In this document: piece after piece, positions 3,153 to 13,743 of the stretch | How the letters are laid out: every line of letters starts with the position of its first letter | How positions within the stretch are numbered: position 1 is the stretch's first letter | From: a virus | Taxonomy: Duplodnaviria > Heunggongvirae > Uroviricota > Caudoviricetes | Length of the DNA stretch: 15,383 nucleotides | Strand: one strand, 5' to 3' | Virus record (IMG/VR): IMGVR_UViG_3300020036_001703 | Notes under the pieces: generated by a model | Seen by the model: the letters and a program-made list of their open reading frames with translations, nothing else | Told to the model about the DNA's origin: nothing | Database searches by the model: none | Position numbers and translations under genes: made by a program

Positions 3153-3250
3153 GCCTGAATAGCTCAGATGGTAGAGACTCCACCTACTTTTGTAGGTTCG
3201 GTTCCCTGAAGAGGAATGCGTCGGAGGTTCGAATCCTTCTTTTGGCACCA
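3153..3250 (+). tRNA. trnF: tRNA-Phe(GAA) with 22-nt insertion in the D-stem 3' strand (possibly pseudo)
   Basis: Acceptor GCCTGAA/TTTTGGC, anticodon stem GTTCC/GGAAT with loop CTGAAGA, T-arm GGAGG-TTCGAAT-CCTTC, encoded ACCA. Removing 3177-3198 gives a canonical 76-nt tRNA. Confidence 0.75.
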
Positions 3251-3306: not shown

Positions 3307-3335
3307 TTGACATTGAAGTGGAAAGCTTCTACGAT
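3307..3335 (+). promoter_or_regulatory. sigma70-like promoter abutting tRNA-Val
   Basis: TTGACA (3307-3312), 17 nt, TACGAT (3330-3335). Confidence 0.5.
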
Positions 3336-3410
3336 AGAGACTTAGCACAGAGGTAGTGCGGCTCCTTTACACGGAGTAGGTCATAGGTTCGATCCCTATA
3401 GTCTCTACCA
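3336..3410 (+). tRNA. trnV: tRNA-Val(UAC)
   Basis: AGAGACT/AGTCTCT acceptor, GCTCC-TTTACAC-GGAGT anticodon arm, encoded CCA. Confidence 0.92.
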
Positions 3411-3411
3411 T

Positions 3412-3486
3412 GTCGATGTAGTTTAATGGTTAGAACAGATGGTTTTCATCCATCCAATCCGAGTTCGATTCTCGGTATCGACTCCA
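3412..3486 (+). tRNA. trnE: tRNA-Glu(UUC)
   Basis: GTCGATG/TATCGAC acceptor, GATGG-TTTTCAT-CCATC anticodon arm, encoded CCA. Confidence 0.9.
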
Positions 3487-3498
3487 GAATTTTTAGGT

Positions 3499-3573
3499 GT
3501 GGCTATAACTCAACTGGTTAGAGTTTCAGGTTGTGACCCTGAATGTGAGAGTTCAAGTCTCTCTAGTCACCCC
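3499..3573 (+). tRNA. trnH: tRNA-His(GUG), lacking G-1 and a complete CCA
   Basis: GTGGCTA/TAGTCAC acceptor, TCAGG-TTGTGAC-CCTGA anticodon arm, C73 followed by CCT. Confidence 0.8.
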
Positions 3574-3590
3574 TAAAAGTTTTAAATTAA

Positions 3591-3666
3591 TGCGGGATAA
3601 CTCAGTTGGTAGAGTGCGAGGCTCATAACCTTGATGTCGTCGGTTCGAATCCGGCTCCCGCAACCA
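3591..3666 (+). tRNA. trnM: tRNA-Met(CAU); initiator, elongator or Ile2 identity not resolved
   Basis: TGCGGGA/TCCCGCA acceptor, CGAGG-CTCATAA-CCTTG anticodon arm, encoded ACCA. Confidence 0.88.
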
Positions 3667-3673
3667 GAATTAA

Positions 3674-3749
3674 TGCCGGTTAGCTCAGTTGTTAGAGCAC
3701 TCGCTTGATAAGCGATAGGTCGTTGGTTAGAGTCCAACACTGGCAACCA
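3674..3749 (+). tRNA. trnI: tRNA-Ile(GAU)
   Basis: TGCCGGT/ACTGGCA acceptor, loop TTGATAA, encoded ACCA; atypical D loop (AGTTGTTA) and T loop (TTAGAGT). Confidence 0.85.
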
Positions 3750-3755
3750 TTTAAT

Positions 3756-3832
3756 GGGTCTTTATTTTCAATTGGATAGATAAATAGACTACGAATTTAT
3801 TGGCGAGAGTTCGAATCTTTCAAGACCCTCCA
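3756..3832 (+). tRNA. trnR: tRNA-Arg(ACG)
   Basis: GGGTCTT/AAGACCC acceptor, ATAGA-CTACGAA-TTTAT anticodon arm, encoded CCA; weak D stem. Confidence 0.8.
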
Positions 3833-3838
3833 TATTGT

Positions 3839-3916
3839 TGGCGAGTAGAATAGTCAGGCCTAATTCAAGCGGCTTTGACCCGCTGATCGTTGGTTCGAAT
3901 CCAACCTCGTCTGCCA
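3839..3916 (+). tRNA. trnQ: tRNA-Gln(UUG)
   Basis: AGCGG-CTTTGAC-CCGCT anticodon arm, GTTGG-TTCGAAT-CCAAC T-arm, GCCA end; 1-72 mismatch. Confidence 0.88.
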
Positions 3917-3923
3917 ATTTAAA

Positions 3924-4007
3924 GCCTCGGTGGTGGAATGGTATACACACTACGCTAAGAACGTAGCGCCGAAAGGATTGAGGGTTCGACTCCCTCCTGA
4001 GGCACCA
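3924..4007 (+). tRNA. trnL: tRNA-Leu(AAG), type II with long variable arm
   Basis: GCCTCGG/CTGAGGC acceptor, CTACG-CTAAGAA-CGTAG anticodon arm (AAG at 3957-3959), variable arm CGCCGAAAGGATT, A73 and CCA. Confidence 0.92.
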
Positions 4008-4023
4008 ATAATATTTAATATTT

Positions 4024-4051
4024 ACCCTATGTATTTTTACATGGGGTTTTT
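4024..4051 (+). terminator. rho-independent terminator closing the tRNA cluster
   Basis: ACCCTATGTA-TTTT-TACATGGGGT 10-bp stem followed by a T-run. Confidence 0.8.
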
Positions 4052-4067
4052 GTGTTTGGAGAAAATA

Positions 4068-4442: not shown

Positions 4443-4529
4443 ATGAGTTCTAATACTGTATTTGCACCAGCGTCAAAAGCACAAGAGCAATTCTTGAATA
4501 GTGATGCAGATATTACTTTCTATGGTGGT
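4443..4529 (+). CDS. terL: terminase large subunit, exon 1 (MSSNTVFAPASKAQEQFLNSDADITFYGG)
   Basis: ATG after TAAGGAGG; Q-motif-like AQEQFL and the first half of Walker A (FYGG). Absent from the ORF track. Confidence 0.92.
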
Positions 4530-4761
4530 AAAGTTGTGCCTCCATTCAAAACCTATTTAATTCGGTGAAACCCTAACGTAAAATCGAGGGCAATACCGAG
4601 CCAAGCAGGGGGTATTTTTAATATCCCCGGGCGTGTGTAGAGACTATGGGAAACCAGTAAGGTTCAAGCGAATCTGAAACAGTAGGATGCTTTATAGCAT
4701 AAGATATAGTCCGACACCCAAGGAAACTTGGGAGTACTCTAGCGAAGTACATAACTTTCTG
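4530..4761 (+). ncRNA. group I intron 1 (232 nt, ORF-less, IA-like) in terL Walker A
   Basis: P1 with U.G (ATGGTGGT/GCCTCCAT); P AATTCGGTGAAAC 4559-4571; Q AATACCGAGCCAAGC 4592-4606; P7 GACTA 4642-4646 with TAGTC 4707-4711 inside AAGATATAGTCC; P9 CCCAAG-GAAA-CTTGGG; terminal G 4761. Removal restores YGG-AAGSGKS in frame. Confidence 0.93.
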
Positions 4762-5988
4762 GCAGCGGGCAGTGGAAAGAGCCATTGCTTACTTATGTCG
4801 TTCCTAAAGTTTTGTCATCATCCACGTACTCGTGGTGTGATATTTAGGCGAACAACAAAGCAGATCACAAACCCTGGTGGTTTATTTGACTCTGCAGTTA
4901 ATTTATACAAATTAGTAGATCCTAAACTAAGAGTAAGAATGAGAGAGTTAGAACTTGTTTTTAGTTCTGGAGCTGTTCTCAAATTTGCTTACCTTGACAA
5001 TGCTTCTGATAAATATAACTTCCAAGGTGCGGAACTTACTTTCATTGGTTTTGATGAGATTCAACAATTAAGTGAAGACAATGTAACTTATTTGTTTTCT
5101 CGTTTGCGTTCAACCTCAGTTGATTATAAGAAGCAGATTGTAGCTACAGGTAATCCTGACTACGATAGTTTCATTCGACATTGGGTTGAATTTGCACTTG
5201 ATGAGCGTGGCATTCCAATTAGAAAAGATGTTTACCCTACTCGATATATGTGTCAAGCGATGGGTGGCTCTATTGAGTGGGCAGATACTAGAGAAGAACT
5301 AGAGAAGAAATATGGTACTGGGGATGACTCTGGTATTCTATCCTTTACATTCATTCCAGGGACTATTTATGATAATCCACCTTTGATGAAGGCTGATCCG
5401 ACTTACGTTAGTAAGTTAAAGAAACTTCCTCGCGTTGAGATGGAACGTCTTCTATTAGGGTCTTGGTATGCAAGACAAGAGGCTGCTGGGCTATGGAAAA
5501 GAGAATGGATAACTCTTGTAGATCACCCTAATCCTAGAGCAACAAAGAGGATAAGAGCATGGGACTTTGCATTTAGTCTGCCATCTGAACAATATCCAAA
5601 TCCTGACTGGACTCGTGGTGTCCTTATGTCAAAGGATAAAAATAGTGTTTACACAGTTGAAAATATTGTCTCTATGCGAGATAGAGTACATGAGGTTGAG
5701 AAGTTGGTATTTGAGACTGCAATGCGTGATGGACAAGAAGTTATTATTTCTATCCCAATTGATCCTGCCGCTGCTGCTGGAGCTTATGCTAGGGATTTTC
5801 AACGTAGACTTTCAGAGTATGGTTTCAATGTGAAATTATCTAAACCTGTGAAGTCTAAGGTAACTCGATTTGCTCCATTCTCAAGTGTAACTCAGGCAGG
5901 GTTTGTTAATGTAGTAAAGGGTGATTGGAATACCCCTTTCTTTGACGAATTAGAGATCTTTGATGGAGATCCTAAGAAAAAAGACGAT
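4762..5988 (+). CDS. terL: terminase large subunit, exon 2 (409 aa)
   Basis: AAGSGKS, GFDEIQQ Walker B, ATGNP coupling motif, RAWDFA nuclease Asp; ends in KKDD. Confidence 0.93.
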
Positions 5989-6756
5989 TAAATTGGGTCG
6001 TCTATAAACTCATTGAATTCGGTGGACACCTACTTGGAATCAAGTAGACAATACCGAGCGAAGCTGGTGTAATACCAGAACGTGTAACGACTAGCCGAAA
6101 GGCGTAGGGGCAAGTGCTCCGAAGCGGTGAGAAACCTAATAACTTAGGTTTAAGATATAGTCTCATCTGCATGGTGACATGCAGCATTTTAATATAGGAG
6201 AATTTCTATGATTTATAATTCAAACTCTACAGGTCCTTTTAAAATTCTGCAAAGGAATGGGGATGCTTGTTTAATTCAGTTTATAGACACTGGCACCACT
6301 AAAACTGCTCATATTTCTAATGTATTAGCTGGTAAAGTAAAAGACCAATACTTCCCTACTTTGTATGGTAAGGGGTATTATGGGGATTACGACAAGACTA
6401 CGACTTATTACAAGCAGGCTAAACAGCTTTGGCAAAATATGCTAAAAAGATGTTATTGCGAAAAAGACTTAAAAGGTTACTATGGTAAAGCAACAGTATC
6501 ACAAAGATGGTTGAACTTTAGCAATTTCCTAGAGGATTTGCCTAGCCTTGTAAACTTTAAGCAGTGGCTGGCCGGCCAACAAAAAACAGGCGGGAAATAT
6601 AATCTGGATAAAGATTTAAAGGTAAAAGGTAATACCTGTTACTGTAAAGAAGCCTGTATGTTTGTAACTGAGTTTGAAAATAAATCAGAAGGTGCCAAAA
6701 ATGGCAAACCTTATACTAAAGTGGGCAAGAGTTAACGCCTCTTGTTTAAGATAATG
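5989..6756 (+). mobile_element. group I intron 2 (768 nt, IA-like) with endonuclease ORF, in the terL nuclease motif
   Basis: P1 AGACGAT/GTCGTCT with U.G; P AATTCGGTGGAC; Q AATACCGAGCGAAGC; P7 GACTA 6089-6093 with TAGTC 6158-6162 inside AAGATATAGTCT; P8 AAACCTAA/TTAGGTTT; P9 CTGCATG-GTGA-CATGCAG; terminal G 6756. Removal gives KKDD-QADCCSDAF. Confidence 0.93.
6208..6735 (+). CDS. intron-encoded HNH-like (His-Me finger type) putative homing endonuclease
   Basis: WQNMLKRCY...VSQRWLNFSNF...LDKDLKVKGNTCY...CMFVTEFEN pattern of phage HNH-like proteins; own SD AGGAG; located 3' of P9 inside intron 2. Confidence 0.75.
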   Translation: MIYNSNSTGPFKILQRNGDACLIQFIDTGTTKTAHISNVLAGKVKDQYFPTLYGKGYYGDYDKTTTYYKQAKQLWQNMLKRCYCEKDLKGYYGKATVSQRWLNFSNFLEDLPSLVNFKQWLAGQQKTGGKYNLDKDLKVKGNTCYCKEACMFVTEFENKSEGAKNGKPYTKVGKS

Positions 6757-8406: not shown

Positions 8407-10392
8407 ATGCCAAATGTAAGTGAAACAAGGCTTGGTATTGATGGTAAACTTAGTGTTGAATTTTCAGGTGGAGCAGCCTCTCGCGTTGTTGACTTGGCTA
8501 ATGCGACAGAACTTTTTACTGATGAGGCGACGTTGAATGATCTTAATACACGACACCCAGCCTCAAGCAACGCTGGGAATAGTGCGATTGTGGGTGGGCG
8601 CCTGTATCAGTCTACACCATCGGCATGGCTATTGCCAGCCTTGATGGATCCAGTGTCTCGTCATTTCGAGGACTCGGACATCGCTGATGGTATCGGCTAC
8701 GCGGCCATGCAGTACCTGGGCGGGGCTGGCTCACTGTTTCCCGCTGTCCGCCCCGAAAATTACGGAGACGTGTCAACGGATGCGACGGCTGCGATTCAAG
8801 CCGCTCTGAACGCCTCCCCTTCGATCATCCTGACGCCGGGCGTCACGTACACCGTCACAGACACTATTGTTTTGCCCGCTGGTCGTGTCTACATCTATTT
8901 CAACGGCGCGACGGTGCAGGCCTCATTCGGGACTAGCTACAGCAAGGCGCTGTTCAGCAACAACAAGACGACTGACGCATCTACCACGCTGTTTGCCGAC
9001 CGCGTGCGCGTAACGGGTAACTGCTGCGCGTTCGACATGCGGTTTACCGCTAACAACCCAGGCGCCGGCTTGGCCATCATCATTGACGGCCTGTACATGA
9101 ACACGCTGGACGGCAACCGCCGTGCAGGCACCAAGGTTTTGGACATCGACCAAGCCGACTTCTGCGCAATCCGTAACGTTGAAGCTTGGAACCTCGACCT
9201 GCCCTTCATGCTGGGTCGTGGTGGCACACGCCGCAACTGCACGCAGATTTTGCTAGACCAAATCATGGTGGCGCAGGTCAACTCAGCTTGCCGCATTGAG
9301 GGCGTTTCCAAAGGCCGAATCAACGGCTTCGACGTAATGACCTGCAACAGCGGGTTCAGCTTCGAGGGATCGAATGAACTGATTGATGTGCACCAGTGCC
9401 ACGTCGAAGGAATCGGCAAGTCGGGTTACTCGGTGAGCGCGCTTGTAAGCTCTTCGTCGGCAGGGACTGGCTGTAATTTCATCGACAGCGTGCAGCATCG
9501 GAAAATCATGCTGAAGCAGTTCGACGTGATCGACCAGGGCGGCACAGGTGGCACGGCCACTGCCGGTATTCGCGTTGGCAAGAACGACGCATCGCAGGCG
9601 ACACTCCAAACCATCACTTTTGAAGACTGCAACATCGCGGGCGCTCAGGATGCCTCGGCCAGCTACAAGCCGCTGGTTAACCGTGGCCGTTTCAAATGGC
9701 GCGGATTGTGGGGCTTCACCAGCAACGTTTCACTATCCGCTAACAGCCAGGGCTACATCGATATGGAAATCGATGACGGCTACAACAATGCGGCCCCTTA
9801 CATTGACCTGATTGGTGGAGGAACTGTGTTGAGCCTCGTCAACGGCTCGGCTACGAACCCGCCCACCATCACCGAGGTATCAGTAGGCACAACGTCATAC
9901 AACGTCGCGCATCAGGTTGTTTTCAACGCGGCGAACTACGAACTGATCCGCACGATCAACTGTCCGTATGGCTGGAACACGATTGACATCGTTGGGTATC
10001 GCACGGCGGGTAACCCTATCGTTTTCGTGCAGCAAAACGGCGGGTCGTTTACCGATCTGGTGCGTATCCAGTTCAACGGGCTTAACGACAAACAGCGTCG
10101 ATGGAGAATTGCGTTCTGGAACGATGCCGCAAACCAGGGTTTGAGGATCGGGTTGTCTGGCCAGGCCATCGGCGACACGTGCGTGGTCCAATCGATCAAC
10201 TGTTATCCAGGCCTGCCACGTCGCGACGTGCCCCAAACACTGGATCACATCGTTACTGCATTGCCGACTGCGTCTGCGCGATGGCGCTACCACCGCATGG
10301 CACTGCGAAACGGCGCAACTGATGAGACGCGCCACACGTGTGTGGTGGACGCCGCTGGCACGTACCTGTGGAAACAGTACACGTTGACATGA
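8407..10392 (+). CDS. right-handed beta-helix (pectate lyase 3-like) protein, tailspike/depolymerase-like, GC-rich
   Basis: PENYGDVSTDATAAIQAALNA...TYTVTDTIVLP is the classic N-terminal motif of Pectate_lyase_3-type beta-helices, followed by Asn/Gly/Ile/Val-rich repeats; SD TAAGGA. Confidence 0.75.
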   Translation: MPNVSETRLGIDGKLSVEFSGGAASRVVDLANATELFTDEATLNDLNTRHPASSNAGNSAIVGGRLYQSTPSAWLLPALMDPVSRHFEDSDIADGIGYAAMQYLGGAGSLFPAVRPENYGDVSTDATAAIQAALNASPSIILTPGVTYTVTDTIVLPAGRVYIYFNGATVQASFGTSYSKALFSNNKTTDASTTLFADRVRVTGNCCAFDMRFTANNPGAGLAIIIDGLYMNTLDGNRRAGTKVLDIDQADFCAIRNVEAWNLDLPFMLGRGGTRRNCTQILLDQIMVAQVNSACRIEGVSKGRINGFDVMTCNSGFSFEGSNELIDVHQCHVEGIGKSGYSVSALVSSSSAGTGCNFIDSVQHRKIMLKQFDVIDQGGTGGTATAGIRVGKNDASQATLQTITFEDCNIAGAQDASASYKPLVNRGRFKWRGLWGFTSNVSLSANSQGYIDMEIDDGYNNAAPYIDLIGGGTVLSLVNGSATNPPTITEVSVGTTSYNVAHQVVFNAANYELIRTINCPYGWNTIDIVGYRTAGNPIVFVQQNGGSFTDLVRIQFNGLNDKQRRWRIAFWNDAANQGLRIGLSGQAIGDTCVVQSINCYPGLPRRDVPQTLDHIVTALPTASARWRYHRMALRNGATDETRHTCVVDAAGTYLWKQYTLT

Positions 10393-12303: not shown

Positions 12304-12705
12304 ATGGCTGTAACTATTGGTACAGATACCTATCGCTTTAGTCACGTTGTTAAGCACGAATACGAACCTTCTCTTGCTTACTGCCGTGAAGTTGTAACTG
12401 CAAATGAATCAGGTGCTAAGACTTATGCTGTTGGTACAGTTCTTGGTAAGGTGACTGCTACAGGTAAGTATAAGATTGTTGAAGCAACTGCTGCTGATGG
12501 TTCTCAGAATGCTGTAGCTGTTGTGATCGAAGATAAGGCTGTGGCAGCTACTACTGATACTTCAGTGCTTGTGCTTGCTCGTGGTCCTGTAATGGTTGGT
12601 AAGGGTGGTCTTGTTGTTGGTGCTTCTGTTGACACTGGTCCTGAATTAGCTGCTGTGTACGCATCGCTTGCTACAGTTGGTATCCTTGTTCAAGATACTA
12701 TCTAA
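12304..12705 (+). CDS. head decoration/stabilisation protein (lambda gpD-like)
   Basis: YAVGTVLGKVTATGKY...ADGSQNAVAV...VLARG motif; directly before the MCP gene. Confidence 0.85.
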   Translation: MAVTIGTDTYRFSHVVKHEYEPSLAYCREVVTANESGAKTYAVGTVLGKVTATGKYKIVEATAADGSQNAVAVVIEDKAVAATTDTSVLVLARGPVMVGKGGLVVGASVDTGPELAAVYASLATVGILVQDTI

Positions 12706-12726: not shown

Positions 12727-13743
12727 ATGACTACATCTCGCAGTTTTTCAAATCAATTTGAAGTTACTGATTATACTCAAGAACTTAACCTGATCCCTAA
12801 TACTTGGGGTCTTATTAATGAACTTGGTATCTTCAATGAAGAAGGTATTACTCAAAATACCGTAACAATGGAATCCAAGGGCGGCACAATCGCTGTTGTT
12901 GGTGATCAAAAGCGTGGTACACGCGCTCAAGTAGGTAAGGACGATGTTGCAACCATTCGTGCTTTCACAACTACTCACCACCCTTATGATGATGCACTAT
13001 TTGCTCACGAACTTCAGGGTCGTCGTGCATATGGTACAGCAGATCAGCCTGATACAGAAGCTCGTGCTATTGCTGATAAGCTTGCTCGTGTCCGTATGGC
13101 TCATGCCCAAACTCTTGAACTTGCTCGTGCAAGCACTCTTGTGAATGGTACTCAGTGGTCGCCTAATGGTACTGTGTCTGAGAACTTCTACACTACTTTC
13201 GGTATTACCCGTAAGGAAATTGACTGTGTTCTTGGTACTGCTACTACTGAAGTAAATGAAAAGCTTCAAGAAGGTGTTGCACATATTCAAGATAATCTTC
13301 TTTCTGGTGAAGTAGTAACTGGTTTCGTTGTGCTTTGCGGTACTAACTTCTTTAATAAGCTTGTTCGTCAGGCTAATATTAAGGAAGCTTACAAGTTCTA
13401 CGCTAGTACACAAGAAGGTCAGCGCAATGGATATCGTAGCGGTCGCTATCAGATCTTTGATCATGCTGGCATTCGTTTCATTGAATATCGTGGTTCTATC
13501 GGTGGTAATGCACTGATCCCTACTGACGAAGCTCGTATGATTCCTACTGGTACTCTTGACACATTCAAGACAATGTTTAGCCCTGCTGCTAAGTTTGATC
13601 TTGTTAATACCGTTGGTGAACAGGCTTATGTCTGGACCTATCGTGATGCTAAGAATACCAAGATTGAAATTGAATCTGAATCCAATTTCATTAACATGGT
13701 AAGACGCCCACAAGCTATTTGCCGTCTTTTCAGTTCAAATTAA
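12727..13743 (+). CDS. major capsid protein (lambda gpE-like family)
   Basis: 338 aa, strongly biased codons, strong SD GGAGG, terminator after the stop codon; ESESNFINMVRRPQAI C-terminus typical of the gpE-like family. Confidence 0.9.
   Translation: MTTSRSFSNQFEVTDYTQELNLIPNTWGLINELGIFNEEGITQNTVTMESKGGTIAVVGDQKRGTRAQVGKDDVATIRAFTTTHHPYDDALFAHELQGRRAYGTADQPDTEARAIADKLARVRMAHAQTLELARASTLVNGTQWSPNGTVSENFYTTFGITRKEIDCVLGTATTEVNEKLQEGVAHIQDNLLSGEVVTGFVVLCGTNFFNKLVRQANIKEAYKFYASTQEGQRNGYRSGRYQIFDHAGIRFIEYRGSIGGNALIPTDEARMIPTGTLDTFKTMFSPAAKFDLVNTVGEQAYVWTYRDAKNTKIEIESESNFINMVRRPQAICRLFSSN

Follow-up and report, generated by a model that had tools for sequence, protein, structure and literature searches.

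A phage tRNA array contains a tRNA-Leu with the anticodon AAG, and we consider it probable that this is a working phage tRNA, derived from a UAG-type tRNA, that supplies a Watson-Crick decoder of CUU to the abundant virion genes. The gene lies in a window, by which we mean the whole stretch of 15,383 nucleotides that was analysed, corresponding to the minus strand of bases 60792-76174 in a 76.4-kb IMG/VR viral record (37% GC, about 82% complete). Judging from consensus matches to a promoter and a terminator, Leu(AAG) is probably transcribed with the array just upstream of the packaging and head genes, and the host leucyl-tRNA synthetase would be expected to charge it with leucine, given the established knowledge that this enzyme does not read the anticodon. 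The charged tRNA would then decode CUU by Watson-Crick pairing; CUU is by far the favoured Leu codon in the head decoration, capsid, tail tube and tail chaperone genes, which encode the most abundant virion proteins.

The window carries genes for PhoH and a ClpP-like protease, the tRNA array and a large terminase gene with two group I introns, downstream of which lie the genes for the portal, a GC-rich ORF of 661 aa, and the genes for head decoration and capsid (Table 1). The nearest isolate is Limnohabitans phage DC31 (61% identity for the portal and 58% for the capsid protein), followed by Curvibacter phage P26059A (53%) and then by Felix-O1-like Pseudomonas phages.

Table 1. Coordinates of the features discussed; positions are those of the window unless a genome or locus handle precedes them (G000, this phage).
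Feature	Position	Strand	Evidence or remark
98-nt tRNA-like gene	3153-3250		Rfam 33.7 bits; untypable by ARAGORN
Strong promoter-like site upstream of the 98-nt gene	2864-2891
Promoter-like site, sigma-70-like: TTGACA, 17 nt spacer, TACGAT	3307..3335	+	consensus match only; directly precedes tRNA-Val of the array
Rest of tRNA array: Val(TAC), Glu(TTC), His(GTG), Met(CAT), Ile(GAT), Arg(ACG), Gln(TTG)	3336..3916	+	ARAGORN, Rfam
tRNA-Arg(ACG), canonical A34 tRNA	3756..3832	+	Rfam 45.3 bits; ARAGORN at relaxed threshold
tRNA-Leu(AAG), class II, A73, encoded CCA; final gene of tRNA array	3924..4007	+	ARAGORN, Rfam
Anticodon AAG within loop CTAAGAA (3955-3961)	3957..3959	+	ARAGORN drawing
Terminator-like hairpin (10 pairs) and T run, 17 nt past tRNA-Leu	about 4024..4057	+	consensus match only
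Group I introns interrupting the large terminase gene	4520-4733 and 5949-6184		Rfam 62 and 75 bits
HNH endonuclease ORF after the second group I intron	6208-6735
661-aa gene between portal and protease	8407-10392		faint pectate-lyase-like Pfam match
Head decoration gene	12304..12705	+	phrog_49
Major capsid protein gene	12727..13743	+	phrog_29
403-aa Phage_tube_2 protein gene	G000:C1:59366-60577	minus	PF18906
112-aa zinc deaminase gene beside dCMP deaminase gene	G000:C1 about 22034-22372; L029:2105-2443	minus

Several other features of the locus were recorded. Both terminase introns are also present in the related viral contigs L006 and L010, and one of them in L009. The 661-aa gene has a GC3 of 0.66, compared with about 0.25 in its neighbours, its Leu codons are mostly CTG, and it has no PHROG match; it was considered as a clue to the host and set aside, as a scan of bacterial genomes returned zero relatives. 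The tail module looks like that of a siphovirus, with the 403-aa tube protein, a chaperone gene, a further small ORF beside the latter and a 1900-aa ORF at the tape-measure position (placed by position alone). Despite this tail module, the relative DC31 is classed in GenBank under Pakpunavirus, which we take to be a myovirus genus.

Elsewhere in the genome the phage encodes tRNAs for Met, Leu(TAA), Lys(TTT) and an Arg(TCT)-like species, and most of its tRNAs decode A/U-ending codons, as expected in an AT-rich phage. Its Leu tRNAs are thus Leu(AAG) and Leu(TAA) only, Leu(UAG) and Leu(GAG) genes being absent from the approximately 82%-complete record. The tRNA-Arg(ACG) of the array, which ARAGORN misses at default settings, has no equivalent in L006, L007 or L010, so that this genome alone of the four in the clade was seen to have it. 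The 98-nt tRNA-like gene upstream of the array shows an apparent extra hairpin in the D/anticodon region. In Curvibacter phage P26059A (KY981271.1), one of the two tRNAs is typed by ARAGORN as having the anticodon CTA ('Pyl') and would be amber-reading.

The preliminary description, made from the sequence alone, had called the Leu gene an intact tRNA with full stems, A73 and CCA, which was confirmed by ARAGORN (type tRNA-Leu(aag)), by an Rfam RF00005 score of 54.7 bits (cut-off 29) and by the drawn cloverleaf. In the latter, the acceptor stem has 7 bp, a single G-U pair among them, the D stem 3 bp, and the anticodon and T stems 5 bp each; the extra arm, though present, measures just about 13 nt, and A14/A15, G18G19 and A73 are seen in the ARAGORN drawing and the sequence. 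By its cloverleaf score and its long-arm, D-stem and A73 features, the gene is a bacterial-type class II tRNA-Leu. The loop also reads CT-AAG-AA as claimed and has a single difference, at position 35, from the loop CTACGAA of the phage's own tRNA-Arg(ACG). Charging with leucine is expected from A73 and the class II shape. LeuRS ignores the anticodon (PMC11028032).

Three viral contigs from other samples (L006, L007 and L010), whose portal proteins are 94-95% identical, have an AAG tRNA directly upstream of terL, and TAG, CAG or GAG, any of which in close relatives would have spoken against the anticodon originally read, occurs in none of them. Because AAG is the same in these three contigs, the A at 3957 is no assembly error. 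The anticodon stem carries a compensatory change from A-T to G-C in L007 and L010, and the T stem a change from G-C to A-T in L007. Leu(AAG) is the one tRNA kept beside terL in all four clade members, while the remaining contents of the array differ greatly. Because the AAG is conserved, the stem changes are compensatory and the gene is constantly retained, we conclude that the gene is real and that its structure is under selection.

In the capsid gene, 17 of the 20 Leu codons are CTT, 2 are CTG and 1 is CTA, with zero TTA, TTG and CTC, so that the hand count reported for this gene in the preliminary description was exact; in the head decoration gene, CTT accounts for 7 of 8 Leu codons. Genome-wide, CTT is the commonest Leu codon at 31%, and its share is highest in the genes for head decoration (0.88), capsid (0.85), the tail chaperone (0.75) and the adjoining 403-aa tail tube protein (0.72). 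These four genes (three in G001) were used as the abundant virion set.

We compared the CTT share of Leu codons between this set and the remaining genes in two near-complete genomes with Leu(AAG) and three complete or nearly complete ones without it, a contrast that is effectively one against three as the two carriers are one lineage and one evolutionary event. Both carriers prefer CTT in the virion genes, namely this phage (G000; 78% versus 30% in the rest, Fisher p = 2 × 10−15) and the close relative G001, which is 96% complete (77% versus 32%, p = 4 × 10−12). Among those without Leu(AAG), CTT falls to 7% versus 19% in DC31 (equal in GC content to this phage, 37.6%; p = 0.008) and to 6% versus 18% in Curvibacter phage P26059A (p = 0.006), which prefers CTG and TTG, and is 18% versus 21% in G002 (p = 0.66), which prefers TTG. 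Since codons that end in T are favoured by all the phages compared in the boxes for Ala, Gly, Thr and Arg, the CTT shift is Leu-specific. Leu(AAG) and Leu(UAA) jointly read TTA, TTG and CTT, which make up 74% of the phage's Leu codons. The cognate codon of Leu(AAG) is thus enriched, above all in the abundant virion genes, as would be expected of a codon-compensating phage tRNA.

CTA is the preferred Leu codon in the capsid genes of DC31 (14 of 23) and L009 (10641-11660; 17 of 27). DC31 (L033; PQ492658.1) prefers CTA across its abundant virion genes (45%) and has zero Leu tRNA genes; therefore, a host tRNA must read its preferred codon.

The preliminary description went further and regarded the tRNA as tuned to the most expressed gene of the phage. 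The CTT match was upheld and is specific to the clade among the near-complete genomes, but it is no general rule: the distant relative L104 (terL 37% identical) has Leu(AAG) upstream of terL and a capsid gene with TTG 13, CTG 6 and CTT 3. The capsid gene of L258 has 17 CTT among 25 Leu codons with Leu(UAG) in view, on a 7.4-kb contig in which the tRNA array is cut at the edge. At about 55 other Leu(AAG) loci with an A37 loop, the composition-controlled CTT excess of neighbouring genes was not significant (+0.008 ± 0.013), and for the class with a G37 loop it was significant (+0.065 ± 0.015); the test is a weak one, its genes being those beside arrays, picked without regard to high expression.

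L104, which has AAG without a CTT preference, and the non-significant result for the A37 class are compatible with a nearly neutral variant, in which AAG arose by drift and is tolerated in a redundant phage tRNA, fitness being little affected. The great variation of array content among close relatives also agrees with drift, as does the expectation that an anticodon change leaves charging intact, with LeuRS not reading the anticodon (PMC11028032). We nevertheless regard drift as very improbable, given that Leu(AAG) alone is retained beside terL throughout the clade of four, that the compensatory changes represent selection on structure, that CTT is very strongly enriched in the abundant virion genes and that the same anticodon is found in about 150 viral contigs.

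A different account of the same tRNA is that the host TadA fully converts A34 to I34, which would enable it to read CUU, CUC and CUA and to replace GAG- and UAG-type Leu tRNAs, as tRNA-Leu(IAG) does in Streptococcus and Oenococcus. Its loop matches the TadA substrate loop of Arg(ACG) save for position 35, the phage is without a Leu(UAG) or Leu(GAG) gene, and GAG accompanies AAG at just 2 of 77 phage loci, all of which would suit an inosine decoder. The loop of the phage tRNA is moreover the Arg2 loop context, the sole one where AAG was edited to some extent to inosine by E. coli TadA, but the modification reached about 15% there and was abolished by changes at 32, 37 or 38 (PMC11066159). E. 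coli TadA, whose mRNA editing motif YUACGAA is the pattern of proteobacterial editing sites, also left S. pyogenes Leu(AAG) unedited in vitro (10.1101/2023.09.19.555891).

Without modification, A34 decodes U much more readily than C (PMC11066159). In G000 and G001, the high-expression genes are poor in codons that I34 would read: CTC is 1 of 98 CTY codons and CTA 2 of 125 Leu codons, which argues against an inosine decoder, although the AT bias weakens the point. The corresponding ratio of CTT to CTC, 97:1, compares with 652:50 in the other four-fold boxes (p = 0.014) and leans, weakly, towards a U-specific decoder. The A37-type loop had been considered as a sign of constraint by TadA editing and was discarded, as G37 loops are also frequent in phage Leu(AAG) (57 loci); there is hence no Arg-type loop constraint in the phage genes, which likewise speaks against inosine. 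On balance, we consider full conversion unlikely and lean towards an A34 that is mostly unmodified. Should the host TadA belong to the proteobacterial, Arg-specific type, inosine would be partial at most, which would make the tRNA essentially a CUU specialist.

A phage-borne A34 editor was considered as well. Beside a dCMP deaminase (147 aa) lies a second protein of 112 aa with an intact HAE/PCxxC site, which is kept in G001 (85%) and DC31 (49%). Its top PDB profile matches are dCMP deaminases, and its structural model (pLDDT 92) has small cytidine deaminases as top fold matches, with TadA not among the top 50. It was rejected as an editor of A34 because it is not TadA-like by profile or fold and because DC31 has the protein without an A34 tRNA. 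Three relatives are labelled TadA by the automatic JGI annotation, to which we gave no weight.

The simplest origin of the gene is probably a single T34A (T to A) change in a phage tRNA-Leu(UAG), because the closest genes found are those for Leu(UAG) in phages. In a collection of 239 unique phage Leu(NAG) tRNAs, the nearest neighbours outside the clade have TAG (80-83% identity), and the nearest other AAG gene outside the clade is 78% identical. The combined D and anticodon arm was found in 13 further viral contigs of 40-62% GC, all with TAG. The closest tRNA in a cultured phage, that of Pseudomonas phage REC (85%), also has TAG, and the six nearest tRNAs examined in GenBank phages have TAG or TAA and none AAG. 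A bacterial origin was considered unlikely because the AAG form of the anticodon arm had zero matches in 185,579 bacterial species genomes.

An identical D/anticodon arm also occurs at L002:404-489, on an unrelated 64-kb viral contig, in a class II Leu-like body with the anticodon TTG and a G discriminator; as TTG reads Gln codons, this is a possible recoding or a mis-typed tRNA.

The preliminary description had presented the anticodon as a rarity. For bacteria, the literature agrees: A34 beyond Arg(ACG) is rare (PMC8007984), and bacterial Leu(AAG) genes are almost all found in Bacilli (PMC13249217). A review moreover states that the ANN genes missing from bacteria are also missing from phages and speaks of a 'prohibited' set (PMC8007984). 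Applied to phages, the claim of novelty or rarity did not hold, as about 150 IMG/VR contigs carry Leu(AAG) on one backbone. The backbone pattern ending in CTAAGAA matched 91 IMG/VR contigs, with Leu(AAG) called by ARAGORN in 74 of 77 new loci, and its G37 version matched 92 contigs, with Leu(AAG) in 57 of 80 loci among the matches listed; the equivalent patterns with GAG and TAG matched 17 and at least 117 contigs, respectively. The longest ORF encodes a phage-family protein in 7 of 10 sampled loci.

At 80% identity, the 69 unique sequences with AAG fall into 34 clusters, with a TAG gene nearest for 21. A rough tree, which is indicative only as it is built on an 85-nt alignment, yielded 39 changes between AAG and other anticodons versus about 58 in shuffles. 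The AAG anticodon seems to have emerged repeatedly among the Leu tRNAs of phages. Loci chosen only for TAG contained AAG in 2 and GAG in 6 of 976 tRNAs; AAG is therefore a minority form, though not an exceptional one. As a class, Leu(AAG) is common among uncultured phages, and the literature says little about it.

In the viral contigs of loci L063-L139, L168-L245 and L274, ARAGORN also called other A34 tRNAs, namely Thr(AGT) four times, Ser(ACT) three times, Ser(AGA) twice and Pro(AGG), Gly(ACC), Asp(ATC), Phe(AAA) and Asn(ATT) once each. More than 12 of the viral Leu(AAG) genes are just 76-77 nt in length, the long arm being missing.

It is conceivable, and we offer it tentatively, that phage tRNA-Leu(AAG) is a widespread, repeatedly evolved class whose members, in combination with an Arg-specific TadA, are CUU-only decoders with a largely unmodified A34. 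As part of the same suggestion, and with equal reserve, the change from UAG to AAG in the clade may have gone along with a recoding of the abundant virion genes, in which CUU would have taken over from the CUA that DC31 and L009 favour.

The apparently repeated origin of AAG could also reflect host defences, with T34A kept mainly for resistance to an anticodon nuclease or to replace a depleted host tRNA and the codon match being secondary. Phage tRNAs do bear anticodon-loop changes at nuclease target sites (PMC10264068), and phage tRNAs can rescue infection from tRNA-cleaving defences (PMC11555353). Such evasion alone fails, however, to predict a strong CTT enrichment that is specific to one class of genes, and the sequence holds no pointer to a nuclease of this kind. 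Counting further against it, we know of no nuclease in a plausible host that targets either Leu(UAG) or Leu(GAG). We therefore judge defence evasion to be quite improbable as the main reason.

The supply of a CUU decoder to the virion genes remains the reading that we prefer. We infer from the hosts of relatives, the isolates of which infect Limnohabitans and Curvibacter, that the host would lack such a decoder. The causal order may run either way, with the tRNA following the codons or the codons following the tRNA.

Three known systems resemble the phage gene in part. The tRNA-Leu(AAG)/(IAG) of Lactobacillales (Streptococcus, Lactobacillaceae and Oenococcus oeni) is likewise of class II with AAG and has replaced the GAG gene, and CUU is raised in highly expressed genes there too (PMC13249217); AAG without a GAG isoacceptor in the same genome is what the phage gene set shows as well. 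In contrast to the phage gene, the Lactobacillales gene is chromosomal, is fully converted to I34 by a relaxed TadA (YUAMGRA) and has a loop whose positions 35 and 37 are unlike those of the Arg loop, whereas the phage gene has A37, is most like phage Leu(UAG) and belongs to a phage with relatives that infect Burkholderiales. The Felix-O1-like myovirus Sf14, a Shigella phage, shares with the present phage an array for A/U-ending codons in an AT-rich lytic phage, and the match of codon-compensating phage tRNAs is, as here, strongest in late structural genes, but the Leu anticodons of Sf14 are of the bacterial type (CAA, TAA and TAG) instead of A34 (PMC12482277). The tRNA-Asp(AUC) of desert Streptomyces is a natural bacterial A34 tRNA that reads a U-ending codon by Watson-Crick pairing, thereby avoiding inefficient G:U wobble, and that raises the expression of genes rich in its codon; unlike the phage tRNA, it carries another amino acid, belongs to a different codon box, is encoded on the chromosome and is backed by experiments (PMC9262613).

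Survey and case together indicate that phages often carry Leu(AAG) and that, in this clade, the tRNA goes along with a codon preference that is sharp, specific to Leu and seen in the most abundant virion genes; the contrast in codon usage with relatives without Leu(AAG) is what the case adds. Phage and host are uncultured, which sets a practical limit. If the host TadA leaves Leu(AAG) unedited, the phage would provide a natural test of decoding by unmodified A34 in bacteria, which has so far been approached mainly with engineered tRNAs (PMC11066159). Should the wider class prove real, its members would be natural examples of elongator tRNAs with an unmodified A34, a kind considered nearly non-existent in living organisms.
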